A stretch of 64,000 nt of DNA from Methanothermococcus sp. Ax23 (GTDB lineage Archaea > AGJL01 > Methanococci > Methanococcales > Methanococcaceae), in NCBI RefSeq assembly GCF_049075655.1, contig NZ_CP157522.1, positions 352,001-416,000 of the forward strand. The letters are read 5' to 3'. Within the stretch, counting starts at the first letter, position 1. Every line of letters starts with the position of its first letter. The notes beneath the pieces are model-generated. The model was given only the letters and a program-made list of their open reading frames with translations, had not been told where the DNA came from and searched no databases. Below are positions 231-61,661 of the stretch, piece after piece. The position numbers were made by a program, and so were the translations under genes.

Positions 231-1481
231 ATGATGTTTAAAAAACCAAAAGGAACAAGGGACTTTACACCTATTGAGATGAAAAAAAGAAGAATTATTG
301 AAGATAAGCTAAGAACTGTATTTGACAGCTACAATTTCAAGGAAATAAACACCCCAACATTTGAGAGCTTCGAGCTTCTATCAAAAAAAACTGGTGAAGA
401 TATAAGAAAGCAGTTGTTTGTTTTCAAAGACCATGGAAACAGAGAGATGGGACTTAGACCGGAGCTCACATCATCAGTTGTAAGATTCTATATAAATGAG
501 CTTAAAAACCTTCCAAAGCCGTTAAAATTATACTACTTTGCAAACTGTTTTAGATACGAGAACCCGCAGGCTGGTAGATACAGAGAATTCTGGCAAATGG
601 GATGTGAATTAATAGGTAGTAAATACCCAATAGCAGATGCAGAGATTATAAATTTGGCAATGGATGGGCTGAATAAAATAAATATGGATTATGAAATACA
701 CATAGGACATTTAGGAGTATTAAAAGGAATATTTAAGGAATTTGAACTTCCAGAGGAAGAAGAATTAAAAATAAGAAGATTGATTGATAAGGAAGATTAC
801 GAAGGTTTGGAAAATTATTTATCCGAACTTAAATCATCCGATGATTTAAAGGACATAATATTTAAAATACTAAATTCAAAAGGAGATAAATCTGTAATAT
901 CTGATTTAAAAGAAGTTTTAAAGGATTATCCAACATCAATTGAAGCATTGAATAATTTAGAGGAAATTCTCGAATTTGTAAAGCACGATAATATTGTAAT
1001 AAATTTCGGTATAGCCAGAGGATTGGATTATTATACTGGGATGGTATTTGAAATCTACGGAAAGAGGGAAGGAGCTCGGCAGGTGTGCGGTGGTGGAAGA
1101 TACGACAATTTAATTGAGTTATTTGGAGAACAACCCACACCAGCAGTTGGTTTTGCCTACGGATTTGACAGAGTTATGCTGAATATCGATGATTTTGAAG
1201 TTGAAGATGAAAGCATACTAATAATACCAATTAAAAAAGATAAAAAACTTTTAAAAGAGTGCTTAAATATTGCAGATGTGCTTAGAGAAAGCGGAAAGAG
1301 TGTAGAAGTTGATTTAATGAACAGAAAATTAAATAAAGCTCTGAATTATGCCAATACCGTTGGAATTAATAAGGTAATTATAGTTGGTGAGAAGGAGCTC
1401 AGCGAAGGTAAGGTTTCATTGAAGAATATGAAAACAGGTGAACAAATATTAATTGATTTGGAGGATTTGAGCAGCATTTAA
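231..1481 (+). CDS. hisS: Histidyl-tRNA synthetase
   Basis: [38 protein letters not shown] and GGGRYD motifs; C-terminal anticodon domain. Confidence 0.97.
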
Positions 1482-1652
1482 TTTTTTAATTATCTTTTTT
1501 AACCTTTACTTTTTAGTTATTACTTGTTTTTAAAATAGTCAAATCATATTATCCCACAATGATTAGAAAAATAGAACGAAGAAGGGACAACTCATTCATT
1601 TAAAATAATTTACTGTAATTTAAATAAGTATCGACGATATTTAGGTGAGCTC

Positions 1653-5583: not shown

Positions 5584-5584
5584 A

Positions 5585-9406: not shown

Positions 9407-10843
9407 ATGGAAGTATTTAAAAAAAAGGACATTTTGGGTATTCTCCATGAGCTCGGTATATTAATATCATCTATTGGGCTCATTATGATGATGCCGGTGT
9501 TTGTTGGATTGTATTTCAACGAACCTATTTATTATTTTTTTTATCCCAGTTTAATATTTACTTTACTGGGAATTTTAATAAATAAATTTACAAAACCGAT
9601 ATCTATTAAATTAAAACATGCTATGGTTGTATCTGCGCTAGCATGGTTATTTGCATCATTAATTGGAGCAATTCCTTTTTATTTAGGAATAACCCATTTT
9701 GGATATATAGATGGCGTTTTTGAAAGCATGTCCGCATGGACTACAACGGGATTTACGCTGATAAATGATGTGGAAGCCCTTCCCCACACACTGCAATTTT
9801 GGAGGAGTTTGGAGCAATGGGTTGGGGGAATAGGGGTTCTTGTAATGGTAATTACCATTCTATCAAAAACAGGAGCTTCGGCATATTATCGAGCTGAGGC
9901 TAGAGAGGAAAAGATACTTCCAAGCACATCAAGCACAGTTAAAAAAATCTGGCAGATTTATTTATTATATACCTCCATAGGAATAAGTCTCCTTTATTTA
10001 AGCGGATTATCACTTTGGGAGGCAGTGAATATCTGTATGTGCGGCATATCAACTGGTGGAATGAGTATAAGCAATTCAAGTTTTCCATATAATGATTTTG
10101 CAAAGATTGTAATGATATTAATTATGACAATTGGAGGTATTGTTTCATTTGCAGTTCATCACAAAATTTTAACTGGAAGATGGATAGATGATATTCAAAC
10201 TAAGGTGGCAATCCCAATTATTATTGTAGCCTCTTTTATTCTTGTGGCATCATCCAATATTAATCCAATTGATGCAATTTTTACAGTAGTTTCTGCTATG
10301 ACAAGCACTGGATACTCCACAGTTAATATTCCAAATTTAAGCAACCTATCTCTTGCTATTTTAATAATTATTATGATGATTGGAGGTTCCACAGGAACAA
10401 CAACGGGAGGTATAAAACTTATAAGATTCGTGATAATGGTAAAAAGTTTTTACTATAAACTAAAAGAAGCTGTGTATCCCCACAATGCAGTTATATATAA
10501 AAAACTTGGAAATAATCCACTAACACCAAATCTTATTGTGGATGCCTATATTGTGGGTTTTATTTATGTATTGCACTATGTGCTTGGAACACTTTTTCTT
10601 ATATCTCTTGGATACGACCCCTTCAAATCAATCTTTGAATCGGTTTCACTTGTGGCAAATATGGGTCTTTCTGTGAATATAGTAAATCATGATTTAAATC
10701 CAATTGGAAAACTATTTGGCATATTTTCCATGTGGGTTGGAAGATTGGAGATAATCCCAGTATATGTTCTTATAATATTGCCGATGATACTAAAAATAAA
10801 AGACTCAAAAAAAGTAATATCTAAAAAAGATATTGTCAAATAA
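9407..10843 (+). CDS. trkH: TrkH-family potassium uptake protein
   Basis: Multi-TM protein; FESMSAWTTTG, QWVGGIG, GGSTGTTTGGIK, MWVGRLEI. Confidence 0.93.
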   Translation: MEVFKKKDILGILHELGILISSIGLIMMMPVFVGLYFNEPIYYFFYPSLIFTLLGILINKFTKPISIKLKHAMVVSALAWLFASLIGAIPFYLGITHFGYIDGVFESMSAWTTTGFTLINDVEALPHTLQFWRSLEQWVGGIGVLVMVITILSKTGASAYYRAEAREEKILPSTSSTVKKIWQIYLLYTSIGISLLYLSGLSLWEAVNICMCGISTGGMSISNSSFPYNDFAKIVMILIMTIGGIVSFAVHHKILTGRWIDDIQTKVAIPIIIVASFILVASSNINPIDAIFTVVSAMTSTGYSTVNIPNLSNLSLAILIIIMMIGGSTGTTTGGIKLIRFVIMVKSFYYKLKEAVYPHNAVIYKKLGNNPLTPNLIVDAYIVGFIYVLHYVLGTLFLISLGYDPFKSIFESVSLVANMGLSVNIVNHDLNPIGKLFGIFSMWVGRLEIIPVYVLIILPMILKIKDSKKVISKKDIVK

Positions 10844-10860
10844 TTATCAAATGCTGAAAT

Positions 10861-11228
10861 CTGACCTACTCCAACGAGTGAACTCGTTGGGTTCTCGCTT
10901 ACGGTAGTAAGCGAGCAACGAAATCACGAAGTGATTTCGTCTAATTTTAGCAGGGTTTAACCCTACATGGGTGGCCAAGCCCACTACCCCTATCCCCGTT
11001 TAGGAGATTCAGGGCTACGCTGTATCACTAAGATTACTCTATCAAAACAAACCACGATACCAACCACTACCAGCGGTAGAGTTTTCACTAACCCTACCCA
11101 TTAGAACTTGGACTGGTAGCGTTACTTACTATTAATCTTCTCATATTTATATTTTACTACTTACTAGCCGATATAATGTCCGCCTCTCATCCAACGATTA
11201 AAATCGTTGGCTTTCTCGGCGGTTTATC
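10861..11228 (-). mobile_element. Non-autonomous IS200/IS605 MITE (PATE), copy A
   Basis: Near-identical to 12432-12806 and 63274-63595. On the minus strand it follows TTAC (11232-11229), has guide AAAG before the left-end hairpin CCAACGAT-TTTA-ATCGTTGG and GAAC before the right-end hairpin CCAACGAG-TTCA-CTCGTTGG, and ends in TCAG. No ORF. Confidence 0.85.
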
Positions 11229-11344
11229 GTAAAATCCCAAAATTCTAAATTTATAAGTAAAATTTTAGCATAAGGTCATGCAATTGGTTTCATTTGTTTC
11301 AAAGTATATCATTTGATAGTATCAAATTAACCAATTGCTTTATA

Positions 11345-11435
11345 AGTCCCATTGCTGGTTTCGTTGCCGTCCCCAACTCGACTTAATGGGTGTGACCCGC
11401 ACCCCCCTACCCGCTACTGGATTCGCGGTTTGCTT
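11345..11435 (-). ncRNA. GC-rich island; candidate ncRNA or tnpB 3'-end remnant
   Basis: About 55-60% GC (by eye) in an AT-rich spacer. A TATA-like AAAAATATATAC lies just upstream on the minus strand. Translation PVAGRGVRVTPIK resembles TnpB C-terminal tails. Confidence 0.35.
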
Positions 11436-11806
11436 ACTTTGTATATATTTTTCATTTAAAGTCGGAAGAAATAGTATTAAAGTGATACTTACTATAAAAC
11501 ATAGTTCGTAATAGTATTTAAAACTTATGATATTATTATTTGACAATATTTGAAACATTTGGTTCAAAAGTGTAGATGATATTATTTTTACAATAATATA
11601 GGATAATAAGTTATTTCAAAGAATTCATATTTCAACAACCTCTAACATATCATAACATTTATATATGTGTAGTATATACACAAATGTAATATCAAAGAAA
11701 TCTTTAAAAATGCGGTAGTTGATGCAGTTCCATCAAATTTAAGAATTAAACTTAAAGGGCACGGAAAAGGGTTTGAATTAGGCGATAATATAAAAAGGTG
11801 ATATTT

Positions 11807-12412
11807 ATGGAAAATATACTGCCCAACATTGAGGGAAAAACTCCAAAAATAGATAAAAATGTGTTTGTTGATAAAAGTGCAGTAATTATAGGAGATGTTA
11901 TCATAGAAAAAGATGTTTATGTAGGTCCAAACGCTGTTATAAGATGTGATGAACCTCCAACTAAGAACATATTAATAAAGGAAGGAGCTAATATTCAAGA
12001 TTTAGTGGTGATACACTGCCTTAGAAACGCACCAATAGTTGTTGGAAGAGAAACTTCAATTGCCCATTCCTCAGTAATTCATGGCCCTGCAAAAATTGGA
12101 GATAATGCATTTATTGGATTTAATTCAGTCATATTTGGAGCTGAAATTGGAAATAATGCCGTAGTAGGGCATAACTCAGTTATAGATGGAGTTGGTGGCA
12201 ATTTAAAAATACCGGATAATAAATGGATCCCTCCAAACACTTCCATATATAAAGACTCAGATGGTGTAATAAGAGCATTTTTGCCCGATGGAACTGTTCT
12301 AACGGATTTTAATAATCTTCCCGATATCCCAGAATGGTACAGGGAAGTTCCCGGGGAGGTTGTGAAAGTAAATAAGGAATTAAATTTAGGATATAAAAAA
12401 TTTATTAAATAA
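11807..12412 (+). CDS. Gamma-class carbonic anhydrase-like protein (hexapeptide repeat)
   Basis: SAVIIGDVII, NAVIRCDE, NIQDLVVIH, IAHSSVIHGP (three Zn-ligand His); RBS AGGTGA before ATG 11807. Confidence 0.85.
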   Translation: MENILPNIEGKTPKIDKNVFVDKSAVIIGDVIIEKDVYVGPNAVIRCDEPPTKNILIKEGANIQDLVVIHCLRNAPIVVGRETSIAHSSVIHGPAKIGDNAFIGFNSVIFGAEIGNNAVVGHNSVIDGVGGNLKIPDNKWIPPNTSIYKDSDGVIRAFLPDGTVLTDFNNLPDIPEWYREVPGEVVKVNKELNLGYKKFIK

Positions 12413-12431
12413 TTTTTAGTTTCAAGTTAAG

Positions 12432-12806
12432 CTGACCTACTCCAACGAGTGAACTCGTTGGGTTCTCGCTTACGGTAGTAAGCGAGCAACGAAATCACGA
12501 AGTGATTTCGTCTAATTTTAGTAGGGTTTAACCCTACAAGGGTGGCCAAGCCCACTACCCCTATCTCCGTTTAGGAGATTCAGGGCTACCTTTTGAACTT
12601 CCAACCACTACCAGCGGTAGAGTTTTCGATAACCCTACCCATAGATACTTGGACTGGTAGCGTTACTTACTACTAATCTTCACATATTTATATTTTACTA
12701 CTTACTAGCCGATATAATGTCCGCCTCTAATCCAATCTCATAAGAGATTTTACAAAACTATGTTTTGTATAACGATTAAAATCGTTGGCTTTCTCGGCGG
12801 TTTATC
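12432..12806 (-). mobile_element. Non-autonomous IS200/IS605 MITE, copy B
   Basis: Same ends as copy A (CTGACCTACTCCAACGAG...CGGCGGTTTATC|GTAA); has an extra 37-nt module at 12736-12772. Confidence 0.85.
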
Positions 12807-12989
12807 GTAAAATGTTTTTAAATAAGCATGTCGAATATATAATGTTATCATATAATCGCAAAAACCTGAGCTCGCACTATGGCAACATAAAAATCAAATG
12901 GATTAGGGATATAGTCTGTATTAATTAATATTACTTTTAATATAATTTATTCAATATATCATCGTTAAATTAACAGGTTTATTTTTTAC

Positions 12990-18598: not shown

Positions 18599-19195
18599 AT
18601 GTATAAAAAAATAATGAATACATTTTTTAATGAGCTAAAAAGCGATGATTTACTGAAGCTATCTGATGATTTCTATGATATGGTTAAAAATTACATAAAA
18701 AATCAGGAATATGAGGATGAAACAGAACTTGAACGGATAAAATATTACATTAAAGAATTAAGAAAGTTAAGATTGTATAAGGCATTTTTTGGAGATAGAA
18801 AGAACCTTCTTGAAGAGGAAAAGGAGCTCCTAAAATTAATTGAAGATATAGAATATTATGATAATTTTAAAAGTAATATAAAAAATGCAGAATGTAGATT
18901 AAAAGAAGATAGTATTTTGGATAAATATCATGAGCTCATATCTAAGAACCAAGAATTATCACATTCAGAACCAAAACCTATAAATACCCAAAAAGATATT
19001 GATATTGTAAGAGTCATTACAAGGTTCCCAGAATTTACAGATGGGAAATTCACTTATGTATTGAATAAAAACGATATAATTACATTAAACAAAAAATTTT
19101 CGAGAATTCTGGAAAAACACAACATAGTTAAAAAAATAAATGGTGGATATCATGAAGATGAAAAAGAAGATAAAAAGATATTGTCCATACTGTAA
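18599..19195 (+). CDS. GINS-family (Gins51-like) replication protein
   Basis: LLKLSDDFY...LRKLRLYK A-domain, [10 protein letters not shown]...[10 protein letters not shown]-domain; conserved PCNA-GINS-L44e-S27e gene order. Confidence 0.7.
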
Positions 19196-19433
19196 AAAAC
19201 ACACACTTCACACAGTAGAAAGAGCAAAAAAGAGAAAAGCAAGTGAATTAACTTGGGGTCAGAGGCAGTTCAGAAGAGTTACTGCTGGATACGGAGGTTA
19301 TCCAAGACCTTTACCAAGTGGTGCTAAGCCAGTTAAAAAATTGGATTTAAGATACAAATGTTCAGAATGCGGAAAAATGCACGTAAGAAGCAACGGCGGA
19401 TTTAGAGCAAGAATATTTGAATTAGTAGAATAA
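19152..19433 (+). CDS. rpl44e: 50S ribosomal protein L44e
   Basis: [38 protein letters not shown]. Confidence 0.95.
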
Positions 19434-19474
19434 TTTAAAAAATATTTTAATTATTTAAATATAGAGGTGGAATA

Positions 19475-19660
19475 ATGGCATTAGTGCAAAAACCAAGAAG
19501 TAGGTTTTTAAGAATCCAGTGTCCAGATTGCGGTACAGAGCAGGTAATATTCGGATGTCCAGCAACAGTTGTAAAATGTATAACATGCGGAAAAACACTT
19601 GCTGAACCAAAAGCTTCAAAAGGATTAATTAAAGCAAAAATATTAGAAGTTTTAGAATAA
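19475..19660 (+). CDS. rps27e: 30S ribosomal protein S27e
   Basis: [20 protein letters not shown]...[10 protein letters not shown]. Confidence 0.95.
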
Positions 19661-20238
19661 AATCTTTTTAACTCTCTTTTTTATTTATCCAATCGAGCGA
19701 AGCTAGTATCGGATTTTCGAAATCCCCATGACTTTACGAAGTAATTTGTAAGATTTTTAAAGGTTTCGTTTGAATCTTCGCCTCACTACTTTTTATCTTT
19801 ATAGTATAATATTTATTAATTCAAATTAATAAATTTAATATATTAAAAATAATTAAAAAATAAAAAGAATAAATTATTTATTTTTATCTCCGCAGGTGCA
19901 TACAACATTTCCTTTTTTAAGTGGCGTGTGAGTTCCAAATACGATTGGTATTTCCAATTCTTTCATTAACTTCTCAGCTACTTCTTCAAAGTTTATATGC
20001 GGACATTCAGGAACTAAGAATGTGCAGTTTGCTATATGAACAGCTTCCGCACCGCTTGCGTTTTTAAGGAGTTTTACCCTCATTGGAAACCTTCTTCCAG
20101 GGCATCCGCCACATGTTGCAAATGCAACTAATTCAACATCTTTATATCTTTCAAATGTTCCGCTTTTTTCATTTATTGCCTTAAAACATGAAAAACATGC
20201 CTCTTTTCCAGGACATCCCATTTGAACCATTTTTTCAC

Positions 20239-21553: not shown

Positions 21554-21603
21554 ATGCAATTATGGCAACTTTCATTTTATCACTTATTTTGTTATTTTTA
21601 TAA

Positions 21604-21846
21604 TTATTTTATGTAATCTTCTAATTCTTTTTTAATCTCTTCAACGGTCGGCAGTTTTCCTTCAAATACTATTTCATCATCAAAAGCAACACCGGGGGCT
21701 ACGAAAATCCATTCAGATATTTCATTTATGTCGGTGACTTTCACAACCTCGGCATCAATACCCAATTCTTCAACAGCTTTTTTAACATTTTCGTATGTTT
21801 GGTTACATTTTGGACATCCTGTTCCAAATACTCTAATTATCATCAT
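21604..21846 (-). CDS. Small redox-active disulfide protein (thioredoxin-like, MTH895 type)
   Basis: IRVFGTGCPKC, VVKVTD, PGVAFDDEIVFEGKLP; RBS GGTGA before ATG 21846. Confidence 0.88.
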   Translation of the reverse strand: MMIIRVFGTGCPKCNQTYENVKKAVEELGIDAEVVKVTDINEISEWIFVAPGVAFDDEIVFEGKLPTVEEIKKELEDYIK

Positions 21847-21977
21847 ATCACCGTTTTTTTTATAATATAGGATAATCCCCATATAATTTATAATTTTCGA
21901 TTAATTGATAGATTTTAATATATTTTAAGAATATTTGAATATACTGTAATATGGTTATATTTAAAGAATTTGAAGAT

Positions 21978-41555: not shown

Positions 41556-41576
41556 GATTTTTATTTTTTTATTTTA

Positions 41577-41633
41577 CTTGACAAAAACACTTCAAGTTTT
41601 TGTAAGTCAGCGAATCCGAAGGACTCGCTTCGA
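41577..41633 (+). repeat. Intergenic copy of the 57-nt double-hairpin element
   Basis: CTTGACAAAAAC...GTTTTTGTAAGTCAGCGAATCCGAAGGACTCGCTTCGA matches 33519-33575. Confidence 0.85.
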
Positions 41634-41657
41634 TATATTTATTTTTATTTTTTTCCA

Positions 41658-45834: not shown

Positions 45835-47121
45835 TTATTTGTTTTTTGCTTTAACATCTATACACATACCAGCTGCAACTGTCATACCCATATCTCTGAT
45901 AGCGAATCTACCGAGCTGTGGGATTTCTCTTACGTTTTCAATAACCATTGGTTTTGTTGGAACGATTTTAACGATTGCAGCATCTCCTGCTTTCAAGAAG
46001 TCTGGGTTTTCTTCTTTAACTTCACCAGTTGCTGGGTTCAATTTTTTGAGGAGCTCTGTGAATGTACATGCTACCTGAGCTGTGTGAGCGTGGAATACTG
46101 GTGTGTATCCTGCTGTGATTACTGATGGGTGCTGTAAAACAACAATCTGTGCTGTGAATTCAGCAGCTACTGTTGGAGCGTTGTCTGGGTGTCCTACAAC
46201 ATCTCCTCTCTTGATGTCCTTCTTACCTACACCTCTTACGTTGAAACCAACGTTGTCACCAGGTTCTGCTTTTGGAAGCTGTTCGTGGTGAGCTTCGATT
46301 GTTTTAACTTCTCCTGAAACACCAGCAGGTTCAAATACAACTTTGTCTCCTGGTTTCATAACTCCTGTTTCTACTCTTCCTACTGGAACTGTACCTACAC
46401 CAGTGATTGTATATACATCCTGGATTGGGAGTCTCAATGGTAAGTCAACTGGTTTTTCAGGTGGCTGGAATGTATCGATAACTTCAACCAATGTTGGTCC
46501 TTTGTACCATGGCATGTTGTCTGATTTGTTAACTACGTTGTCTCCGTGGTATGATGCTACTGGAACGAAGTGTATGTTGTCAGGGTTGTATCCTAACATT
46601 TTCAATAACTGGTTTGAAAGCATATCTTTCATTGCTTTGTAATCTTCTTCGCTGTAATTTACTGTGTCCATTTTGTTAATTGCAACAGCTAACTGGTTTA
46701 CACCGAGTGTTCTAATTAAGAAGATGTGCTCTCTTGTTTGTGGTTGTAATCCTGTTTTAGCGTCGTTTACATCACATACTAAGATAGCAGCATCTGCCTG
46801 TGAAGCTCCTGTAATCATGTTTTTAATGAAGTCTCTGTGTCCTGGACAGTCCACAATTGTTACATCGTATTTTTTACTTTCGAATTTTTTGTGAGCTACG
46901 TCGATTGTAACTCCTCTTTCTCTTTCTTCTTTTAAACCATCCATAACGTAAGCGAATTCGAATCCTGCTTTACCTTTTTCAGCAGCTTCTCTTTTCAATC
47001 TTTCTAATACCTGTGGGTCAATAGCTCCACTGTCTAATAATAATCTACCAACTGTTGTGGATTTACCAGCATCTACGTGTCCGATAAATGCAACGTTTAG
47101 TACAGGTTTTTCTTTTGCCAT
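45835..47121 (-). CDS. tuf: Elongation factor 1-alpha
   Basis: [38 protein letters not shown]. Confidence 0.98.
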
Positions 47122-47309
47122 AATCTTACCTCCAAATATGTTTATTTTATTTATATTTTAAAAATTTTTTTAAAATATTTATAATATTTTAAGTATTCTG
47201 GAATTTAAGGGTTTTTAAAAGGAATAATTAAATTTATAAGGATTACAAAATTGTAATATTCATTATACCAAAGGGGTATATATATTTTGTGGTGATTTAC
47301 ACCACAACA

Positions 47310-49493
47310 TTAATCTGTTTTCAATCCTTTTCTTTCTCTTATCTCTTTTATAATTTTTGGTTGCAATTCGTTAGGGACTCTTTCGAATCCTCCAAACTCA
47401 ACACTCCATAAACATCTACCTTGGGTAGCTCCCCTAATTGCACCTGCAAATCCAAACATTTCTGAAACAGGAGCTTTTGATTTGATTAATGTCATATCCC
47501 CTTCCTGTTCCATATCCAATATCTGTCCTCTTCTGTTGCTGAGCTCTCTCATTGCATCTCCCATGTAGTCCTGTGGTGTGTTTATGAATACCTTCTGGAC
47601 AGGCTCCAATAACACTGGTTTTGCCTGCATAATTGCATCTCTGATACCAAATCTTACAGCAGGTATTAACTGAGAAGGACCTCTGTGGATTGCATCTTCG
47701 TGGAATACTGCATCTACTAATTTAACTTTTACTCCCTGACATTTTTCAGCTGCCAATGGACCGTTTCTTACAGCTTCTTTGAAACCTTCGATTATCAATT
47801 CTCTTGCTTCGTCCAATTGAACAATACCTCTTGTCATGTTGAGGAGCATGTTTCCTTCATAGATGGACATTACTCTCTTAGCTTCTTCCTTATCAAGTCC
47901 TGCTTCAACTAAAATTTTTTCTGTTTCCTGAGGTGTCTTTTTCTTGAAGTCTTCGTCTTTGATTTTTCCTTCCTTGTATGCTTCATATACTGTTTCTTCC
48001 AATGGCTCTACTACGAAGTATAATTTGTTGTGCTTGTTTGGTGATTTACCTTCTACCTCAGGTGATTTTCCAGTTACTGTTTCTCTATAAACAACGATAG
48101 GTTCCCCAACTTCTACCTCAATACCTGCATCTCTTCCTATCTTTGTATTTGTAATAACTTCAATGTGGAGCTCACCCATACCACTGATTAAGTGCTCTCC
48201 TGTTTCTTCGTTAATTTCAACTTTTACTGTGTTGTCTTCTTTTGCTATCTGTCTTAAAACTTCAATTAATTTTGGAAGGTCTTTTGTATTTTTAGCTTCA
48301 ATTGCTACGGTAATTACAGGCTCACTTACGTGTGTAATTGATTCAAATGGTGGTTCAAGTATGTTGCTTGGGCTACATACTGTTTCCCCTGCACTTGCTT
48401 CCTTCAATCCGGTTAAAGCACAGATGTTTCCTGCTGAAACGCTTGAAACTTGAACTCTTTCAGCACCCATGAACACAGCAACCTGCTGAGCTCTTGCTTT
48501 CTGCTTTGAACCTACCAAGTATAACTCTTCACCTTGTTTTATTCTACCACTGAACAATCTGCATGCAGATATAGCACCAGCGTGTTTATCTACGATGATT
48601 TTTGTAATTACACCAGCTAATGGACCATTAGGGTCACAATTAACCATTGCTTTACCAATTTCTGATTCCAAATCTCCTTTCCAGATGTTTGGAATTCTGT
48701 ATTTCTGTGCTTCTACTGGGTTTGGAAGGTGTTTAATTACCATGTCCAAAAGAACTTCATGAAGTGGTGCCTTTTGAGCGAGCTCCTTCTGGTTTTCATT
48801 TTCACAGTAGTCTATAATATCTTTAAATGAAATGCCTGTTTTTTTCATGTATGGAACGGAAATTGCCCAGTTGTGGTATGCTGAACCAAATGCAACACTT
48901 CCATCCATAACATTTACTACCCATTCATTTTTGAATTCTTCTGAAGCCATTTTTTGAATTAATTTATTTACATCGTTGATAATTTTTGTAAATCTATTCA
49001 TCAATTCTTCTGGGGTTAATTTTAACTCATTTAACAATCTATCTACTTTGTTGATGAATAAAACAGGTTTTACCTTTTCCTTTAAAGCCTGTCTTAAAAC
49101 TGTCTCTGTCTGAGGCATGATACCTTCAACAGCACATACAACAACAACAGCACCATCAATAGCTCTCATTGCTCTTGTAACGTCCCCACCAAAATCAACG
49201 TGTCCTGGTGTGTCGATTAAGTTAATTAAAAATTCTTTTCCATCATATTCGTGTACCATTGACACGTTTGCAGCATAGATTGTAATACCTCTTGCTGCTT
49301 CCTCTTCATCAAAATCAAGTGCTAACTGGTCTCCTGCAAGGTCTTTGGAAATCATTCCTGCCCCTGCTAAGAGGTTGTCTGATAATGTTGTTTTACCGTG
49401 GTCAATGTGTGCACAGATACCAATGTTTCTTATTCTATCGTGGGTTTCCATCAAGCTTTTAACTTTTTCAACCATTTTTGCTCTTCTTCCCAT
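47310..49493 (-). CDS. fusA: Elongation factor 2
   Basis: [30 protein letters not shown] (diphthamide His). Confidence 0.98.
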
Positions 49494-53228: not shown

Positions 53229-55895
53229 TTATTCATATTTTGATTTAACCTTTGTAAATATTTTATCCAAATCCACAGCTTTTCCATGGTCTGCTTTGGA
53301 TGGGTCCACATAATCCTCTCCATAAGCGAACTGAACAATGAGTCCTTTTGAATCTCTTACGGTACCATCATATTCTGCTTTTAAGTCTTGAAGAGCATTA
53401 ACGAGTCTTCTCTGCATATATCCTGACTGTGCAGTTCTGACCGCCTGGTCGACAAGCCCTTCTCTTCCCCCCATAGCGTGGAAGAAGTATTCTGTTGGTG
53501 AAAGACCTTTCTTATAACAGCTTCTAACGAAACCGTGTGATTTTGCAGATAAACTACCTTTTTCAAAGTGTGGAAGTGTTCTTCCTCTATAACCTCTGAA
53601 AACCCTGCCACCCCTGACAGCCTGCTGACCGACACATCCTGCCATCATTGTAATGTTCAACAATGAACCTCTTGCACCGGTCCTTGCCATCACTGCGGCA
53701 TGGTTATCTTCACCTAAATACCTCTCTGCAATCTTACCTGCTTCATCCCTTGCTTTACCAAGTATCTGCATAATATAAGCTTCCCTTGATTCTTCTAATC
53801 CTCTACCTGGCAGCGGTTCAAGAGTTCCCTCTTCATACTGTTTGATAATCTCTTCAACCTGCTCCTCTGCCTTGTCCAGTGATTTTTGAATCTCTTCAAT
53901 TGCCTCTTCTGGAATATCCTCATCATCGATACCTGTGGTGAATCCTTTTATCATCATTGCTCTGATGGACATTTTAGTTGCAGCATCCAAGAATTTTCTT
54001 GCCTCTTCTGAACCAAATTCCTTAACTATCATGTTTAATATAATTCCTGCCTCAGAACCGTATCCGTTTTTATCAACGACCCCTTTAATTAACTTACCAT
54101 TTTTGATGATTACATAGGCATCATAAGGGCAGTTTTCTTCCAGACATTCATCACACTTTTTACAGATTTTTGCCCTATATCTTAAATTCAAATCATTTGG
54201 TAGTGTCCTACTGAATAGATTTTTTCCACTGTATAATTCCTTATCATCTTCAACAATATCAGGTTCTCCTAAATCATCTTTAAGACCTGAACCTCTCAAT
54301 ATAATAGATGCCTCATCCTTTGTAAAGTAGGAGCTCGTCAATACATAAGCACCTGAGATGAAATCGTGAATTGCACCAATGATAGGTCCACCATATCTTG
54401 GAGATACTATGTGTTTTTCTACAAGCATTAGAGTTTCAGCCTCTGCCCTGGCTTCTTCTAACTGAGGAACGTGGAGGTTCATTTCGTCCCCATCGAAGTC
54501 AGCGTTATATGGGGGACAAACGCACAGGTTGTGCCTGAATGTTCTATATGGCAAAACTTTAACTTTATGTGCCATGATTGACATCCTGTGAAGTGAAGGT
54601 TGCCTGTTGTAAAGAACAATATCTCCGTCCATCAAATGCCTTTCAACAATCATTCCTTCTTCAATTTTATCAATCCAGACTTCTTTATTTTTATCAGTTA
54701 TTTTTATCTTTAATTCATCTTCCTTTCCATCCCTCGTCCTTACCTTTTTTATAAGATAATTTACACCCGGATGTTTTTCTGAACCATTTTTAAGGAGCTC
54801 CTTTATTTTGCCAATATTGTATCTTGTAACCTTTTCTGGAACTGTTAATTCCCTTGCAATTTTTTCTGGAACTCCAACTTCATTTATACTTAAACATGGG
54901 TCTGGCGAAATAACGGTCCTTGCAGAGAAATTAACCCTTTTACCAGCGAGATTATGCCTAAATCTTCCTTCTTTACCTTTTAACCTCTGTGCAATTGTCC
55001 TAAGAGGTCTTCCGCTTCTGTGTCTTGCAGGAGGCGTTCCCGGTGCTTCGTTGTCAAAGTATGTGTTTATGTGATATTGCAACAAATCCCAAAGGTCTTC
55101 TATGATTAAGTTCGGAGCTCCTCCTTCAATATTTTCCTCCAACCTTTGATTGATTCTAATAATATCCACTAATTTATGGGTTAAGTCATCTTCACTTCTT
55201 TCCCCGCTTTCAAGGGTAATGGATGGTCTTACAGTAACTGGCGGCACAGGAAGAACTGTTAAAATCATCCATTCTGGTCTTGCAACTTCTGGATTTATTC
55301 CCAATAATGTGCAATCCTCATTAGGTATTTTTTCAAGAATTTCCCTAACTTCTGAAGATGTAATCTGTCTTTGAGCTTTTCCATCTATTTGGTAGTAGGT
55401 TGTTGGTTTAGAGTATTTAACATCATATTTAACCTCACCGCAGTATGGGCATATATCTTTTCCTGCGGCTTCTTTTAAAATTTCATCAGCCAATGCCCAT
55501 TTATCTCCACCTTCTTCTTCCAATTTTTTCATCTTTTCAAGATAATCTGCCCTTTTTGTTTCATTTATGGCAACTTTTCCACAGTGCGGACATACTGCCT
55601 TTAAAATCTTATAGATATCCTTTGCAAATCCTATATGGACCACAGGTTTTGAGAGCTCGATATGTCCAAAATGCCCAGGACAGCTACCGACCCTACCACC
55701 GCATGTTTTACAAACTAATCCAGGGTCTATCACACCCAATCTTGTGTCCATCAATCCGCCATCAATTGGATAACCGTCATCATCATAGGTATCTGCTGTT
55801 ACGATTTTTGCAACAGATATTTTTCTAATATACTCAGGAGATAACAACCCAAATACAATCTCTCCAATTTCCTTTGGAACATCAAATTTATCCAT
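53229..55895 (-). CDS. rpoA1: RNA polymerase subunit A'
   Basis: CPGHFGHI, YNADFDGDEMN catalytic motif, TAQSGYMQRRL; no intein. Confidence 0.98.
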   Translation of the reverse strand: MDKFDVPKEIGEIVFGLLSPEYIRKISVAKIVTADTYDDDGYPIDGGLMDTRLGVIDPGLVCKTCGGRVGSCPGHFGHIELSKPVVHIGFAKDIYKILKAVCPHCGKVAINETKRADYLEKMKKLEEEGGDKWALADEILKEAAGKDICPYCGEVKYDVKYSKPTTYYQIDGKAQRQITSSEVREILEKIPNEDCTLLGINPEVARPEWMILTVLPVPPVTVRPSITLESGERSEDDLTHKLVDIIRINQRLEENIEGGAPNLIIEDLWDLLQYHINTYFDNEAPGTPPARHRSGRPLRTIAQRLKGKEGRFRHNLAGKRVNFSARTVISPDPCLSINEVGVPEKIARELTVPEKVTRYNIGKIKELLKNGSEKHPGVNYLIKKVRTRDGKEDELKIKITDKNKEVWIDKIEEGMIVERHLMDGDIVLYNRQPSLHRMSIMAHKVKVLPYRTFRHNLCVCPPYNADFDGDEMNLHVPQLEEARAEAETLMLVEKHIVSPRYGGPIIGAIHDFISGAYVLTSSYFTKDEASIILRGSGLKDDLGEPDIVEDDKELYSGKNLFSRTLPNDLNLRYRAKICKKCDECLEENCPYDAYVIIKNGKLIKGVVDKNGYGSEAGIILNMIVKEFGSEEARKFLDAATKMSIRAMMIKGFTTGIDDEDIPEEAIEEIQKSLDKAEEQVEEIIKQYEEGTLEPLPGRGLEESREAYIMQILGKARDEAGKIAERYLGEDNHAAVMARTGARGSLLNITMMAGCVGQQAVRGGRVFRGYRGRTLPHFEKGSLSAKSHGFVRSCYKKGLSPTEYFFHAMGGREGLVDQAVRTAQSGYMQRRLVNALQDLKAEYDGTVRDSKGLIVQFAYGEDYVDPSKADHGKAVDLDKIFTKVKSKYE

Positions 55896-56013
55896 GCAAT
55901 TTCACCCATTAGTATAAATTATTGGCGTTTTAGTGTATATAATAAATATTATGGTAAATATGACAAAAATATAAAATAAAAATATAAATAAAATTTTTTA
56001 TAATCAACGGCAA

Positions 56014-57858
56014 TTATGCCCTATCTTTTAGCTCTAATTTTGGATTGATACCCATACTTCTGAGCTCATCAAGCAATAGTTTAAATGCATAAGGAAGTTT
56101 AACCGGTGGTATCTTTCTATCACTTTGAATGTCTTCGGTTTCTCCACAAACTGGACAGTATTTAATACCTCTTTTATGGTCGTATATTGCAACTTCCCCA
56201 CATTTTGAACATATATAGCATTCGTAAGGGTCGGATTCATCAAACAGCCTTTCTTTCAACAACAATGCTGCACCATGCCCGATAAGAACATCTCTTTCCA
56301 TTTCCCCGAATCTTAAACCACCTTCTCTTGCCCTACCTTCTGTTGGCTGTCTTGTGAGCACCTGTATAGGACCTCTACTTCTTGCATGTATCTTCCCTGC
56401 AACCAAGTGGTGCAACTTCTGGTAGTATGCAATTCCAACGAATATTTCGCATTCCAATTTCTTTCCAGTTTTTCCATCATACATTACTTCTTTACCGTGA
56501 TGCTTAAAGCCGTATTTTTCAAATGTTCTTCTTAAATCCCATTCTTTTTCTCCGCTGAATATCGTTCCATCTACCCTTCTACACTCCATTGCCCCTACTT
56601 TACCACCAATCATCTCTAAAACCTGACCAATGGTCATCCTTGATGGAATTGCGTGAGGGTTGATAATTAAATCTGGAAATACTCCATTTTCTGTAAATGG
56701 CATGTCTTCCTGAGGGACTATAAGACCTATAACCCCCTTCTGACCGTGCCTTGAAGCAAATTTGTCTCCCAATTCTGGTATCCTCAAATCCCTTACTCTA
56801 ATTTTTGCCAGTCTGTTTCCTTCTTTTGTTTCTGACAGAATAACTGCATCTACAATACCTCCCTCTCCATGTCTTACAGTGACGGAGGTGTCCCTTCTCT
56901 GAGATTTTGTTCTTAAAGATATATCCTGTTCCTCCAAAAATCTCGGTGGTGAGGTTTTACCTATGATTACATCCCCTGATTTTACTTCGGATTCTACCTC
57001 TACGATACCATCGTCCCCTAAATTCCTATAAGCATCTTCTGCCCTATATCCTCTAACTCCCTGTTCTGGAACTTCAAATCTATCGAGTTGCCCACCAGGG
57101 TATCTCTTTTCAAAACCTTCATAACTTCTAAAAAAGCTACTTCTACCAAGACCTCTTTCAATGGATGCCTTGTTGATTATAAAAGCATCCTCCATATTAT
57201 AACCTTCATAACTCATTACAGCTACAACAAAATTCTGTCCAGCCGGTCTTTTATCAAATCCAAGTATTTCTTGGTGTTTTGTCCTTACAATTGGAACATG
57301 AGGATAGTGGAGAAGATGCCCTTTTGTATCCATCCTTAATTTTAAGTTCGACATTGGAATACCAAGGGACTGTTTCCCCATCGCCGCTGCCATTGTAATC
57401 CTTGGAGCAGAGTTGTGTTCTGGATATGGAGCAACCCCTGCACCAATACCTAATATAGACATAGGGTCAATTTCCAAATGAGTATGATTTTCATTTAATT
57501 CCTTTTCATAAACTGCAATATACGCATTTTCCTCTTCTTCTGCATCCAAATATTCAATAACTCCTTCATTAACTAAATCTGAGAAAGTAATTTCTCCATT
57601 CCTCAACTTCTCAATATGTTCTTCTGTTAATTTTGGTTTTCCATTTTCAACCACTATCAACGGTCTTATGGCTCTACCTGCGTCTGTTGATATGTGAATA
57701 TCGTTGCTCTCCTCATTATAGGATATCGAAGTATATGGTGAGAGCTCCCCATTTCTTCTTTTTTCCCTTAAATATTTTACAAATTCCTCAGGATTATCTA
57801 CTGAACCTACCAATTTTCCATTAACATACAAATTTGTCTGTTTTTCCAAGGTTTTCAC
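56014..57858 (-). CDS. rpoB1: RNA polymerase subunit B'
   Basis: [30 protein letters not shown]. Confidence 0.97.
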
Positions 57859-57966
57859 CTTTTAAATAAAATTTTTAAAGTTATTCTTCTTTTATTATCT
57901 TTATTTTATTATTTTATTTTTATTCTTTTATACTTTATTTTATCTCATATAGCTTATTTCGTTTAA

Positions 57967-59484
57967 TTAATACTCATCTTTAACTGATTTTACGAGGCCT
58001 GATTCCTTTAATAAATTTAATATTTTCTCATCATCTTCATCAGTTGTAACCTTACACATCACTGCAATGTTTTTAACAAGACCACAATTTGGACCTTCTG
58101 GTGTTTCTGATGGACAGATTTTTCCCCACTGAGTTGCGTGTAAATCCCTTGCCTCAAAGTGTGGTTGTGACCTTGACAACGGAGATACAAGCCTTCTTAA
58201 CTGGGAAACCGTAGCAAGATAACTTGTTCTATCCAATAACTGACTTACACCAGTTCTACCTCCCACCCAGTTTCCGGTAGCCATTGCATGCCTTATTCTT
58301 TCAGTTAAAACATCACTTCTAACTGCTGCCTGGATTGAAGGGGATTTGTTTCTTATTGCCTGCCTCTCCAATTGATATTTTATATCTTTCATTAATTGGT
58401 TGAATGAATATCTAAATAAATCTTCCATTAAGTCCCCTGCCAATTTCAATCTCTTGTTTGCGTAGTGGTCTTTATCATCCTCTACCCTAAGACCCAAATA
58501 TAATTCAATAGCGTTTTTTGCCATTCTTCCTAAAAATATGCATTTTTCAATTAAATCTTCTTTTTCTACGCCCATGTGTGGCAATAAATAATTACATAAT
58601 ATTGTTTCAGCCCTTTTAAGTCGGTACTCTTTTGGCTGTCCAGGAGCTACTCTTTTTCCAATATATTCCAGTGCATCCTCTCTTGTAATAATATTGTGTT
58701 CTTCTCTGATTTCCAAAATGTTTGCGATTAACTGCATGGTTATTGTTGGGTCTTCGGATATCATTTTAAATATATCACTATCGTTTTCTGCTCCAAGAGC
58801 CTTCATTAAAATTATCAGTGGAATATTTCCTGACATTCCCGGGAATGTTGCATTTAATCTTCCATCTTCATGTCTTTCCACAGTACATAATGCCCTAAAT
58901 CCATGTCTTGTTGAAAATACTTTTGCAATATAAACTGTTTTACCACTCTTCACTACTTTTTCACATAAAATCCTATTTGGAATTAAATCTTCCTGAGCTA
59001 CTACTGCCTTCTCAGAACCATTAACTATAAAATAACCTAATGGGTCTTCCGGGTCTTCACCCATGCTTATTAATTCCTCTCTGGTTTTTCCATATAAGTG
59101 GCATGCCTTTGAACCGAGCATTACAGGGAGCTCCCCTATATATACTTCAACGGTCTCACCAAGTGTTTCTTCGGTACCATCTTCTCCACCAATAATCGGG
59201 GTCATCTCCAAATAAACAGGGGCTGAATAAGATAGATTTCTTATTCTAGCTTCCATAGGAGTTATTTCTTTAACTGAACCGTCTGCTTCCTTATTTATCG
59301 GTTTTCCTACTCTAATCTTTCCAAATTTTACTTTATATCCGCCTTTAACTTCGGTTTCTACAAGACCTACTTCATCAAGTATTTTTTGGATGCTACTTTC
59401 TATAAATTTGTTATATGAGTCTATATGGTGCTTCACCAAACTATTTTCTTTAAAAAATGAATCAACAATTATTCGGGATTCCAT
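57967..59484 (-). CDS. rpoB2: RNA polymerase subunit B''
   Basis: GYFIVNGSE, KRLKLAGDL, CPSETPEGPNCGLVKN. Confidence 0.97.
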   Translation of the reverse strand: MESRIIVDSFFKENSLVKHHIDSYNKFIESSIQKILDEVGLVETEVKGGYKVKFGKIRVGKPINKEADGSVKEITPMEARIRNLSYSAPVYLEMTPIIGGEDGTEETLGETVEVYIGELPVMLGSKACHLYGKTREELISMGEDPEDPLGYFIVNGSEKAVVAQEDLIPNRILCEKVVKSGKTVYIAKVFSTRHGFRALCTVERHEDGRLNATFPGMSGNIPLIILMKALGAENDSDIFKMISEDPTITMQLIANILEIREEHNIITREDALEYIGKRVAPGQPKEYRLKRAETILCNYLLPHMGVEKEDLIEKCIFLGRMAKNAIELYLGLRVEDDKDHYANKRLKLAGDLMEDLFRYSFNQLMKDIKYQLERQAIRNKSPSIQAAVRSDVLTERIRHAMATGNWVGGRTGVSQLLDRTSYLATVSQLRRLVSPLSRSQPHFEARDLHATQWGKICPSETPEGPNCGLVKNIAVMCKVTTDEDDEKILNLLKESGLVKSVKDEY

Positions 59485-59835: not shown

Positions 59836-60122
59836 AATATGGCCTCCGTAGATTTAAAATAGAATAAACTTATCATGTGCATCATACAAAATAATTCCTA
59901 CTACTATTTATTTTTTTCGCTTAATTGCAATTCCTAAAAAAAATTTTTAATAAAAAATATGATAAACATATAATAGGAATATAATAAGAATACAATATAC
60001 TGCCATAATCATTGATAATTATCTTTACTTAAATTCTTTATATTTAATTAATTGTATCCAATATATTTATATATTAGGTTGTTAATAAGCTATAAAAATA
60101 AATTCATAAGGATGATGATATT

Positions 60123-61661
60123 ATGAAAACTATCAAAGAAATTAATGAAAAGATAAAAAACGGAGAAGCTGTGGTAGTGACTTCCGAAGAAATGATTAAA
60201 ATTGTAGATGAAGTCGGTGCAAAAAATGCAGCGAAAGAAGTGGATGTAGTTACAACAGGAACTTTCGGAGCTATGTGTTCTAGTGGAGTATTTTTAAACT
60301 TTGGACATTCAGACCCCCCAATAAAAATGATAAAAACATATTTAAATGGTGTAGAAGCATATTCTGGGCTTGCCGCAGTAGATGCCTATTTAGGAGCTAC
60401 CCAGCCAAATTCAGATGATGATATAGATATTGATTATGGCGGAGCTCATGTGATAGAGGACTTGGTGGCAGGTAAAGAGATTGAGCTCATTGCGGAAGGA
60501 TATACAACAGACTGCTATCCTAGAAAAAGGGTATCTACTACAATAACAATAGATGATTTAAATCAGGCCATACTTCTTAATCCAAGAAACTGCTACCAAA
60601 CCTATGCAGCAGCAACAAACAGCAGGGACGAAAAGATATATACCTACATGGGAACTCTCCTCCCAGAATTTGGAAATATAAACTACTCAGGGGCTGGACA
60701 GTTAAATCCACTTCAAAACGATTATAACAAGGCGACCAAGTCATACAATACCATAGGTATTGGAACGAGAATATTCCTAGGTGGCGGAATTGGATATATA
60801 GTGGGCGAAGGTACCCAGCACAATCCAGACACCGCATTTGGAACATTTATGGTGAAAGGAGATTTAAAAACAATGAACAGCGAATATCTCAGAGGAGCCA
60901 CAATTCCAAAATATGGAAGCACATTATTTGTAGGCATTGGAGTTCCAATTCCTGTTTTAAATGAAGATATTGCAAAAGCATGTGCCATAAGGGATGAAGA
61001 TATTGAAGTTCCAATAGTTGATTATGGAGTTCCAAGAAGGGAACGACCTATTGTAGCAAAAACCAACTATAAAGAATTAAGAAAGGGGGAGCTCACCCTT
61101 GAATTAAATGGTAATGGAACTAAAAAAATCGAAAAGACCATAAAAACTGCGCCCGTATCTAGCTATAAAAAATCTAGGGAAGTTGCAGAGGAACTTAAAA
61201 ATTGGATATTAAATGGAGAATTTTTATTAACTGAGAGAGTCGATGTTTTCGGAAAAGGTTCTGCCAAACCAATGAAAGCAAAGGCGAAACTTGTGGGAGA
61301 TATCATAAGCAAACCTCCAATTGTGGGAAAATCTGACATAACAATTGATGAAGCTTCAAAAATATTAATTGAAAATGATATTAACCACCTGCCAATCGTC
61401 GATGAGAATAATATATTAATAGGTATTTTAACCTCATGGGACATAGCAAGGGCAGTAGCGCAGAATAAAAAATCAATATCCGAAATAATGACAAGACACA
61501 TTATCAGTTCAACAGTTGATGAACCAATCGATGTTGTGGCAAGGAAAATGAGTAGAAACAATATATCTGGCGTTCCAGTCGTGGATAAAAACGGCAAGGT
61601 TTTGGGTGTAGTAACCGCAGAAGACCTATCAAAGCTCATAGGGATGAGAATGAAGATATAA
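60123..61661 (+). CDS. Homocysteine biosynthesis protein (DUF39 plus CBS pair; aspartate semialdehyde sulfurtransferase)
   Basis: VDVVTTGTFGAMCSSG, NPRNCYQ, two C-terminal CBS domains; paired with a NIL-ferredoxin gene. Confidence 0.88.
   Translation: MKTIKEINEKIKNGEAVVVTSEEMIKIVDEVGAKNAAKEVDVVTTGTFGAMCSSGVFLNFGHSDPPIKMIKTYLNGVEAYSGLAAVDAYLGATQPNSDDDIDIDYGGAHVIEDLVAGKEIELIAEGYTTDCYPRKRVSTTITIDDLNQAILLNPRNCYQTYAAATNSRDEKIYTYMGTLLPEFGNINYSGAGQLNPLQNDYNKATKSYNTIGIGTRIFLGGGIGYIVGEGTQHNPDTAFGTFMVKGDLKTMNSEYLRGATIPKYGSTLFVGIGVPIPVLNEDIAKACAIRDEDIEVPIVDYGVPRRERPIVAKTNYKELRKGELTLELNGNGTKKIEKTIKTAPVSSYKKSREVAEELKNWILNGEFLLTERVDVFGKGSAKPMKAKAKLVGDIISKPPIVGKSDITIDEASKILIENDINHLPIVDENNILIGILTSWDIARAVAQNKKSISEIMTRHIISSTVDEPIDVVARKMSRNNISGVPVVDKNGKVLGVVTAEDLSKLIGMRMKI

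Follow-up and report, generated by a model that had tools for sequence, protein, structure and literature searches.

The window analysed here is the whole 64,000-nucleotide stretch at positions 352,001 to 416,000 of the main contig (G000:C1:352001-416000) of Methanothermococcus sp. Ax23, the source genome (G000), which consists of 1,662,948 bp plus a second contig of 7,732 bp and has a G+C content of 31.9%. Its genes for an archaeal RNA polymerase A′ subunit, the translation elongation factor (EF) aEF-2, a methanogenesis marker protein and a sulfite reductase of the F420 type identify the organism as a Methanococcales methanogen. The feature under study is the six-base palindrome GAGCTC, which occurs in the window in 73 exact copies, the first at 462-467 and the last at 61089-61094. 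A preliminary description of the same DNA had estimated about 70 sites, and all 12 of the coordinates it gave as examples occur in our site list. Genes were called with our own crude open reading frame (ORF) calls (1,604 ORFs in G000, 86.5% coding). On these calls the sites are distributed as follows, in different codon phases as well as between genes, as had been remarked before:

462..61094, palindromic and strandless: 73 GAGCTC sites, 70 in ORFs (45 as GAG-CTC, 16 as xGA-GCT-Cxx and 9 as xxG-AGC-TCx) and 3 intergenic
1647..1652, no strand: intergenic GAGCTC, between the histidyl-tRNA synthetase (HisRS) gene and a PglX-like methyltransferase gene
12868..12873, no strand: intergenic GAGCTC, immediately beyond the second copy of a repeat that resembles a miniature inverted-repeat transposable element (MITE)
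23092..23097, no strand: intergenic GAGCTC, from the site list and the gene calls

In 100 dinucleotide-preserving shuffles of the window, 4.63 sites were expected (s.d. 1.97, maximum 10), in line with the four to five predicted earlier, and none of the shuffles reached 73. For the whole of G000, 2,089 copies were counted against 124.7 expected, an observed-to-expected ratio (O/E) of 16.75. Under Markov models of order 0, 1, 2, 3 and 4, the O/E was 16.8, 19.7, 13.1, 4.9 and 1.6, respectively, and under each order the z-score of GAGCTC ranked first among the 4,096 hexamers. The drop at orders 3 and 4 is circular, because 4,170 of the 5,130 GAGCT pentamers in the genome (81%) fall within GAGCTC itself. 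The runner-up hexamers, GGAGCT/AGCTCC at 7.8, overlap GAGCTC; the next palindrome, CCATGG, stands at 2.6, and among all hexamers no unrelated one has a comparable enrichment. The preliminary description had proposed this very comparison with Markov nulls and had named equal enrichment of similar hexamers as the result that would speak against it; that result was not obtained. A genome-wide, many-fold excess of a perfect short palindrome is what marks a highly iterated palindrome (HIP) in the descriptive sense, and GAGCTC displays it. That the word is a real and actively maintained feature at the level of DNA is nearly certain.

The excess is found inside and outside genes alike. Coding DNA of G000 harbours 1,955 sites against 119.1 expected (O/E 16.4), and non-coding DNA 130 against 7.6 (O/E 17). 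Genome-wide, the coding sites are read as GAG-CTC (Glu-Leu) in 1,101 cases, as xGA-GCT-Cxx in 630 and as xxG-AGC-TCx in 225. Shuffling of synonymous codons within genes yielded 194±13 sites (maximum 231, 30 shuffles) and shuffling of whole codons 118±10, compared with 1,956 observed. Moreover, 1,101 of the 3,959 Glu-Leu dipeptides (28%) are spelt GAG-CTC, with 67 expected, and GAG and CTC are otherwise minor codons in G000 (25 and 7%, respectively). Amino-acid or codon usage, which the preliminary description had already considered an unlikely cause, cannot account for such an excess; therefore, the force acts on DNA.

A bias at the level of translation or composition (in codons, codon pairs or dipeptides) could be read into the Glu-Leu codon pair, which makes up 45 of 70 coding sites within the window and 1,101 of 1,956 across the genome. 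Against it stand the equal enrichment of non-coding DNA, the use of the other two phases, the 10-fold excess over the synonymous-shuffle null and the minor status of GAG and CTC; the non-coding O/E, the codon shuffles and the Markov tests rule out a codon, dipeptide or composition artefact. The related idea of passive survival, through slower deamination of methylated cytosines, is contradicted by gains that are elevated as well as retention (see below), which passive protection cannot give. Together these explanations retain a negligible probability.

The flanks of GAGCTC carry at most 0.22 bit per position (a weak G before and a weak C after), and an Rfam search of the window gave no match. 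GAGCTC as a piece of a longer repeat or of an RNA family is ruled out by these bare flanks and the lack of an Rfam match in the window. The word is thus dispersed outside longer repeats, in all frames and in non-coding DNA as well, as the descriptive notion of a HIP has it. Sites in G000 lie 797 bp apart on average (coefficient of variation 1.09), the variance-to-mean ratio of site counts is about 1 across bins from 1 to 50 kb, and 692 genes are without a site compared with 658 expected under Poisson. No periodicity was detected, the strongest spectral peak (14,870) lying near the random mean (14,440; 95th percentile 18,990) in a test simpler than the one published for the cyanobacterial HIP1 (GCGATCGC). 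The only departure is a lower density over the first tenth of genes. Placement of GAGCTC is random and Poisson-like, without spacing control. On the second contig (7.7 kb, presumed to be a plasmid), 4 sites were found against 0.31 expected.

Among 41 related genomes, GAGCTC counts are sharply bimodal: five genomes are enriched (G000, 2,089; G012, 2,070; G010, 1,645; G013, 1,515; G003, 1,321), and the other 36 have 4-490 copies each. Some congeners lie far under expectation (G007, 4; G008, 9; G005, 14; G002, 16). The same five genomes stand out among the 38 genomes of the phylum that are at least 80% complete, and in the orthologous 20-kb region that carries the RNA polymerase and EF-2 genes, 17-25 sites were found in four sampled enriched genomes versus 1-5 in ten others. 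In G010, the word is effectively an octamer, as GGAGCTCC accounts for 1,259 of its 1,645 sites (O/E 571, with about 2.2 copies expected), and this genome also harbours 215 copies of GGGAGCTCCC. In a tree of a single protein (RpoA′), which does not contain G003, the enriched genomes do not form a single clade: G013 falls with a genus that is not enriched (support 90/88), and G010, the G000-G012 pair and a clade of nine non-enriched genomes meet in a three-way polytomy. At least two changes of state are therefore needed.

Several observations on related words were made in the same survey. In the first 800 kb of the non-enriched G005, all AGCT-containing hexamers are depleted, with O/E from 0.04 to 0.26 (AAGCTT 0.04, GAGCTT 0.08, GAGCTC 0.05); avoidance of AGCT is the usual mark of an AluI-type restriction system, and no PF00145 methyltransferase match was found in this genome. 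In the 17 genomes of genus g5, GGAGCTCC occurs in 16-35 copies versus 0-4 for the reversed control and GAGCTC in 49-229, counts that are not normalized for composition and may represent a mild excess in the sister family. CTCGAG, which is GAGCTC read backwards, is nearly absent from the five enriched genomes (6-45 copies) and not from G005 (83). A second case in another phylum, suggested by 1,911 and 1,992 copies of GAGCTC in G044 and G045, was withdrawn: their rough O/E is only 4.5-5, like that of G047 and G053, and at 55-60% GC (from 2.7-3.6 kb of sampled DNA) the excess may be ordinary codon usage of GC-rich genomes. In G044 and G045, CTCGAG is present in 3-4 copies, a depletion of about 100-fold that suggests an XhoI-type restriction system.

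The retention of sites was examined in 126 orthologues of G000 and G012, at 85% nucleotide identity (69% at four-fold sites), in which the two genomes have 120 sites in common, with a further 37 found only in G000 and 39 only in G012. At conserved Glu-Leu positions, GAGCTC was kept in 76 of 84 cases, compared with 80 of 170 for other spellings (Fisher p = 2e-12). The whole word was conserved at a rate of 0.764; the corresponding values were 0.371 for one-off words, 0.352 for the other hexamers containing four G/C and 0.366 for the other palindromes of that composition. Furthermore, codons were better conserved inside the word than outside it (GAG, 80/89 versus 255/543; CTC, 79/89 versus 33/117; GCT, 40/42 versus 340/452). 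At the G000-G012 distance, therefore, both signs of HIP conservation are present, i.e. a word kept better than its controls and codons kept better inside it than outside. One-off words were not conserved above controls. Existing GAGCTC sites thus decay several times more slowly than comparable words.

With G010 used for polarization, 32 of 33 sites private to G012 and 28 of 34 private to G000 have no counterpart site in G010, so that both lineages went on gaining sites after the split. When conserved genes are aligned by codon, nearly all sites prove common to G000 and G012, and those of G010 and G013 are mostly elsewhere. Sites arise mainly by A>G and T>C changes at synonymous positions, with GAACTT and GAGCTC as the commonest interchange. 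Gain at synonymous positions relative to orthologues, which the preliminary description had put forward as a check, is accordingly seen for most sites, some arising through replacement. GAA-CTC and GAG-CTT, the synonymous neighbours one transition away, reach 0.29 and 0.31 of the expected frequency, respectively (0.62 and 0.46 once the motif's own codons are excluded from the frequencies), and one-off words in G000 are at or under expectation genome-wide. The flanks of private sites are 0.231 divergent versus 0.265±0.016 in Hamming-matched controls; there is no excess and therefore no sign that new sites come on imported divergent DNA.

Selection for a function of the sites, whether binding of a lineage-specific nucleoid or chromatin protein, a ‘self' watermark against nucleases or defence systems, or a strand or timing signal for replication or repair, would explain such retention by a tiny benefit per site with no transmission bias. 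Sites conserved far above controls and codons better kept inside the motif are the same evidence that has been argued for HIP1 (PMC5861425, accessible part). Foreign and mobile DNA is without the word (see below), as a self-mark requires, and an unknown repair signal is conceivable because neither MutS nor NucS was found in five genomes. However, a repair signal or an architectural role would be expected to favour control over coverage or spacing, of which the Poisson-like placement without periodicity gives no sign; one-off words, unlike the one-off variants of HIP1, are kept no better than controls; and the amino-acid sequence is overridden in EF-2, EF-1alpha and RNA polymerase. To our knowledge, no protein that binds GAGCTC has been described. 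We regard selection as an unlikely explanation, although one to be taken seriously.

The overriding of protein sequence is visible in two gene groups of the window:

45835..49493, minus strand: EF-1alpha and EF-2 genes, with 5 sites (46051, 47541, 48168, 48488 and 48780)
53229..59484, minus strand: RNA polymerase A′, B′ and B′′ genes, with 7 sites (54331, 54795, 55115, 55653, 56062, 57742 and 59128)

At two of the five sites in the elongation factor genes, Glu-Leu stands where non-enriched relatives have Glu-Ile: column 1947 of the EF2 alignment and column 1065 of the EF1a alignment read GAAATC in non-enriched genomes and GAGCTC in G000, G012 and G010. Replacements that make sites thus include Glu-Ile to Glu-Leu in EF-2 and EF-1alpha, as well as Lys/Arg-Leu to Glu-Leu in RpoA′. 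Nearly all of the RNA polymerase sites are common to G012 and few are common to G010 or G013. Across 540 triples of orthologues, the tripeptide Gly-Ala-Pro (GGA-GCT-CCn) was counted 146 times in G010, 58 times in G000 and 21 times in G005, i.e. 7-fold more in G010 than in G005; the corresponding counts of Glu-Leu are 1,379, 1,366 and 1,114. The force thus shifts protein composition and is strong enough to alter the amino-acid sequences of EF-2, EF-1alpha and RNA polymerase.

Some DNA is devoid of the word. The two longest site-free stretches of the window are those of a TnpB element and of a MITE-flanked gene:

9455..12867, no strand: longest site-free stretch of the window, with a hexapeptide-repeat (gamma-carbonic-anhydrase-like) gene at 11798-12412
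10858-11235 and 12429-12813: copies of a ~380-bp direct repeat that flank the hexapeptide-repeat gene and are 93-100% identical in three blocks
18938..22148, no strand: second site-free stretch, with a CGGC-domain gene at 19874-20269 (minus strand) and a TnpB gene at 20403-21485 (plus strand)

The earlier observation that the tnpB element, the MITEs and the carbonic anhydrase gene are without sites thus holds for both stretches. Genome-wide, the 15 TnpB-family genes of G000 (13.8 kb) harbour no site versus 18.7 expected at coding density; many of the copies are 75-100% identical to one another, and a Poisson P value for them is overstated because they are related and not independent. The ten TnpB genes of G010 harbour 1 site versus 6.4 expected. 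Core genes of G000 have an O/E of 19.8 and genes without any G010 hit one of 12.3, so that, with none in the 15 TnpB genes, the word is richer in core than in accessory or mobile DNA, in the manner of an uptake sequence. The longest site-free gaps of G000 are low-GC islands or islands with genes that lack G010 counterparts, one of which holds type III restriction-modification genes. Recently arrived DNA (TnpB elements, the MITE-flanked gene) is without GAGCTC.

As regards the layout of these regions, the ~380-bp copies and the hexapeptide-repeat gene look like a composite MITE-bounded unit. The CGGC-TnpB block of ~1.9 kb is missing in G012 between the same two flanking genes, pointing to a recent insertion or a deletion, and a 64-nt segment at 20254-20317 is repeated at 63289-63352 of the window with 89% identity. 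Elsewhere in G000, the longest site-free stretches are G000:C1:113848-124946 (11.1 kb) and 1342927-1355393 (12.5 kb, with one site inside), both of 26-27% G+C and with genes poorly conserved in G010.

The lower accessory and mobile density bears on a further rival, an archaeal signal for DNA uptake or recombination, by which the competence machinery, or some step following entry, would favour fragments with GAGCTC and sites would spread via homologous replacement as a molecular drive, like the uptake signal sequences (USS) of Pasteurellaceae and the DNA uptake sequences (DUS) of Neisseriaceae. USS and DUS occur at a similar density, accumulate in genes, shift proteins, form dialects, are poorer in new DNA and probably spread by molecular drive; about one GAGCTC per 0.8 kb in all frames, the proteome shift, the 6-mer and 8-mer dialects and the poverty of recent DNA resemble this. 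Yet known uptake sequences are longer than GAGCTC and non-palindromic (9-12 nt), have common one-off variants and have had their uptake bias demonstrated experimentally. HIP1 has also been proposed as an uptake watermark (PMC13756078, in the portion available). Natural transformation of Methanococcus needs a TctA-like transporter, according to the accessible text of PMC10133366, by which archaeal transformation machinery also differs from that behind USS and DUS. A TctA-family gene was found in 36 of the 41 genomes, including all five enriched ones; being nearly universal, the TctA-like transporter does not track the trait and was rejected as a driver. In G012, the TctA-like gene (G012:C1:516935-518076) is interrupted in a T-run by the net loss of 1 nt and could be either a pseudogene or the product of a homopolymer sequencing error; if truly frameshifted, it speaks against an uptake signal, as sites continued to be gained in that lineage. 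ComEC was found in none of G000, G012, G010, G013 and G005, a negative that is uninformative for archaea (PMC10133366, same part). Three results speak against uptake besides: the small second contig, presumably a plasmid, is as enriched as the chromosome, the flanks of new sites show no excess divergence and one-off words are depleted instead of enriched. Altogether an uptake signal seems improbable.

GAGCTC is a bare six-base, duplex-symmetric HIP that a lineage-specific force creates and protects, site by site, on all resident replicons. As to the nature of that force, a symmetric (dimeric) protein would read GAGCTC as double-stranded DNA, with a specificity that may differ among lineages; such a reader with evolving specificity is suggested because G010 has 1,259 GGAGCTCC and 215 GGGAGCTCCC. 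Where a perfect site on one genome copy of a polyploid cell meets a near-site on another, mismatches or heteroduplexes would form, and their resolution would favour the perfect word, amounting to a drive by sequence-specific gene conversion or short-patch repair that biases fixation. The reader or repair protein would lie outside known families. Repair or conversion is favoured because the presumed plasmid and accessory genes are enriched too, because one-off words are drained and not accumulated, because new sites are without an import signature and because placement is without density homeostasis. Intracellular biased repair or gene conversion as the engine is a tentative choice, somewhat short of an even chance; the account as a whole, including a biased repair or conversion drive read by a symmetric protein, is the best overall explanation and comes only just short of one. 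More doubtful is the wider proposal that an archaeal system not yet described recognizes GAGCTC and spreads this target of its own through the genome, either through conversion or short-patch repair between polyploid copies or as the first archaeal uptake or self-recognition sequence. The proteins of such a system would lie outside the methyltransferase, Vsr, MutS and NucS families, and it would rewrite conserved proteins and would have been gained or lost at least twice in one methanogen family.

Several points weigh against a repair or conversion drive. Polyploidy is known for other Methanococcales and is assumed for these organisms, and the 17- to 571-fold excess seen here goes far beyond known repair-driven word biases, such as that of Dcm/Vsr in E. 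coli. The conservation of sites is equally predicted by plain selection, and divergence data cannot separate selection from biased conversion. Between G000 and G010 (1,209 reciprocal best hits, median amino-acid identity 75.6%), 412 of 1,636 aligned G000 sites are also G010 sites, and the odds ratio of sharing is 5.2 over 1,858 conserved Glu-Leu positions; as control codon pairs give 2.0-6.9, a range that includes 5.2, no additional conservation of position is evident at this distance. The search for machinery adds to these points. No match to the C5 methyltransferase family PF00145 was found in G000 and only sub-threshold ones in its genus; Vsr (PF03852) was found in none of the 41 genomes, with control genomes positive; MutS_V and NucS_C were found in none of G000, G012, G010, G013 and G005; and no DNA methyltransferase common to G000 and G010 was found. 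A helicase-nuclease pair of G000 tracks the trait imperfectly, being present in G000, G013, G010 and the non-enriched G032 and not found in G012 or G003. In the same search, a Methanocaldococcus jannaschii control was positive for NucS, and the family may lack both known mismatch-repair systems.

The preliminary description had suspected a methyltransferase- or Vsr-type process, for which the classic model is a cytosine methyltransferase of GAGCTC or AGCT with very-short-patch repair by Vsr of T:G mismatches back to the site. The neighbours that are depleted indeed differ from the word by transitions (T>C at positions 4 and 6, which corresponds to A>G at 3 and 1), and methyltransferases accompany HIP1 in cyanobacteria (PMC4390886, accessible portion). 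The candidate DNA methyltransferases of G000 are L002, L003, L007, L010, L012 and the PglX-like gene of the window:

1653-4862, plus strand: PglX/BREX-like type IIG adenine methyltransferase of 1,069 aa, adjoining the HisRS gene and without a G010 homologue

L012 (300 aa, PF01555, SPPY motif), the only small type-II-like methyltransferase of G000, was rejected as the cognate enzyme as it does not track the trait: close orthologues were found only in G003 and seven non-enriched g5 genomes, and none in G010, G012 or G013. The Eco57I-type L002 and L003, the HsdM protein L007, the PglX-like gene and the type III Mod protein L010 were also rejected, none having a G010 homologue, as were L005, L006 and L014 (SPPY or NPPY motifs, no Pfam family), of which L005 and L006 have homologues in the non-enriched G005 and L014 is core (39 of 41 genomes). 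In G012, which is fully enriched and 99% complete, no PF01555 or PF00145 DNA methyltransferase was found, only type I and type IIG enzymes. The gene that the preliminary description had suggested looking for, a methyltransferase or Vsr-like gene whose distribution tracks the enrichment, was thus not found among L012, the other G000 enzymes and those of G012, and its suspicion was not upheld. With Vsr in none of 41 genomes, no PF00145 in G000, an L012 that does not track, no PF01555 in G012 and nothing common to G000 and G010, the methyltransferase/Vsr model is very improbable and already largely refuted for known families. A methyltransferase link is not supported by these surveys, in which no methyltransferase appears common to the enriched genomes. 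The endonuclease family RE_SacI was found in none of the same five genomes (G000, G012, G010, G013 and G005), a result that is uninformative as no control genome was positive either.

The helicase-nuclease pair belongs to a four-gene cluster at G000:C1:1536507-1541061 (L168, L013) that encodes a Bud32/MAD6-like kinase, a DUF6884/DpdC-like protein, a UvrD/PcrA/AddA-like helicase of 772 aa and a Cas4/AddA-type PD-(D/E)XK nuclease of 311 aa. The cluster was rejected as a driver, as it is lacking in G012, which kept gaining sites, unless it was lost there very recently; it looks like a patchy candidate module for defence or repair. No iterated palindrome was seen in a 20-kb sample of G032. A comparison that covered half of G005, at poor synteny, leaves as many as 484 candidate genes that are present in G000 and G010 and were not seen in that half of G005, 4 of them syntenically flanked.

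Set beside known systems, GAGCTC is closest in kind to the HIPs. Like HIP1 and the alternative cyanobacterial HIPs, it is a short perfect palindrome, hyper-abundant at about one per kb, and like them it is dispersed in all frames and between genes, patchy among relatives and found in palindromic lineage variants or extensions (PMC4390886, PMC5861425, both in part). The same partly available sources give HIPs an O/E of 15-300, compared with 17 (6-mer) and 571 (8-mer) here. The word shares with HIP1 a conservation that exceeds both that of control palindromes and that of the same codons used elsewhere (PMC5861425, in part). The label ‘HIP1-like' of the preliminary description is therefore apt in kind, with the excess, the action at DNA level and the conservation tests described in the accessible text of PMC5861425 all reproduced. 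It is not HIP1 proper. HIP1 is GCGATCGC, within which GATC and CGATCG are nested; the word here is instead GAGCTC or GGAGCTCC, in another domain of life and an AT-rich genome where GATC has an O/E of 0.03. No cognate orphan methyltransferase tracks it, as methyltransferases do track HIP1 (PMC4390886, accessible portion); no MutS was found for a methyl-directed repair model; there is no periodicity, for which the published HIP1 range is 10-90 kb; and one-off variants are neither abundant nor specially conserved.

Other systems share single aspects. Dcm/Vsr on CCWGG-related words of E. coli also pushes near-sites to a specific word and depletes transition neighbours, with a small effect size; unlike the force on GAGCTC, it needs both a C5 methyltransferase and Vsr, neither of which was found to be encoded in G000. 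Chi, the word of RecBCD/AddAB, is likewise short and over-represented and marks self DNA, and G000 encodes a UvrD/AddA-like helicase adjoining a PD-(D/E)XK nuclease. However, Chi is asymmetric and strand-skewed, which is impossible for a palindrome, and the helicase-nuclease pair is present in only three of the five enriched genomes plus one non-enriched, so neither a strand-oriented word nor a tracking helicase-nuclease is seen here. In Helicobacter, the restriction-type palindrome CCGG is over-represented ~1.4-1.5-fold, with a cognate restriction-modification system and no accepted explanation (PMC4687349, as far as its available text goes). Both words are over-represented and not avoided, but the excess of GAGCTC surpasses that of CCGG more than 10-fold, and a cognate system for it was not found. 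No report of enrichment of GAGCTC or GGAGCTCC, or of an archaeal iterated palindrome, was found in the literature covered, which excluded supplementary tables and subscription journals.

HIPs have been studied for thirty years almost solely in cyanobacteria, with their cause disputed among repair, selection for nucleoid structure and DNA uptake. An independent archaeal case provides a second, contrasting system for separating these ideas, as the word is another one, no methyltransferase tracks it and neither MutS nor NucS was found in five genomes; the on and off states among close relatives and the difference in specificity between 6-mer and 8-mer add to the contrast with HIP1. Within these genomes, GAGCTC serves to tell resident DNA from DNA acquired recently, and does so sensitively. 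As the recognition site of SacI, the word also bears on cloning and restriction analysis in these methanogens.

G000 strongly avoids certain other palindromes, namely GATC, GTAC, CTAG and CGCG, the four CTNNAG palindromes (O/E 0.04-0.14) and the four GTNNAC palindromes (0.03-0.06). Finally, the window contains two 61-nt copies, at 33518-33578 and 41576-41636, that are 87% identical and have internal inverted repeats, possibly representing a small MITE or a structured RNA.

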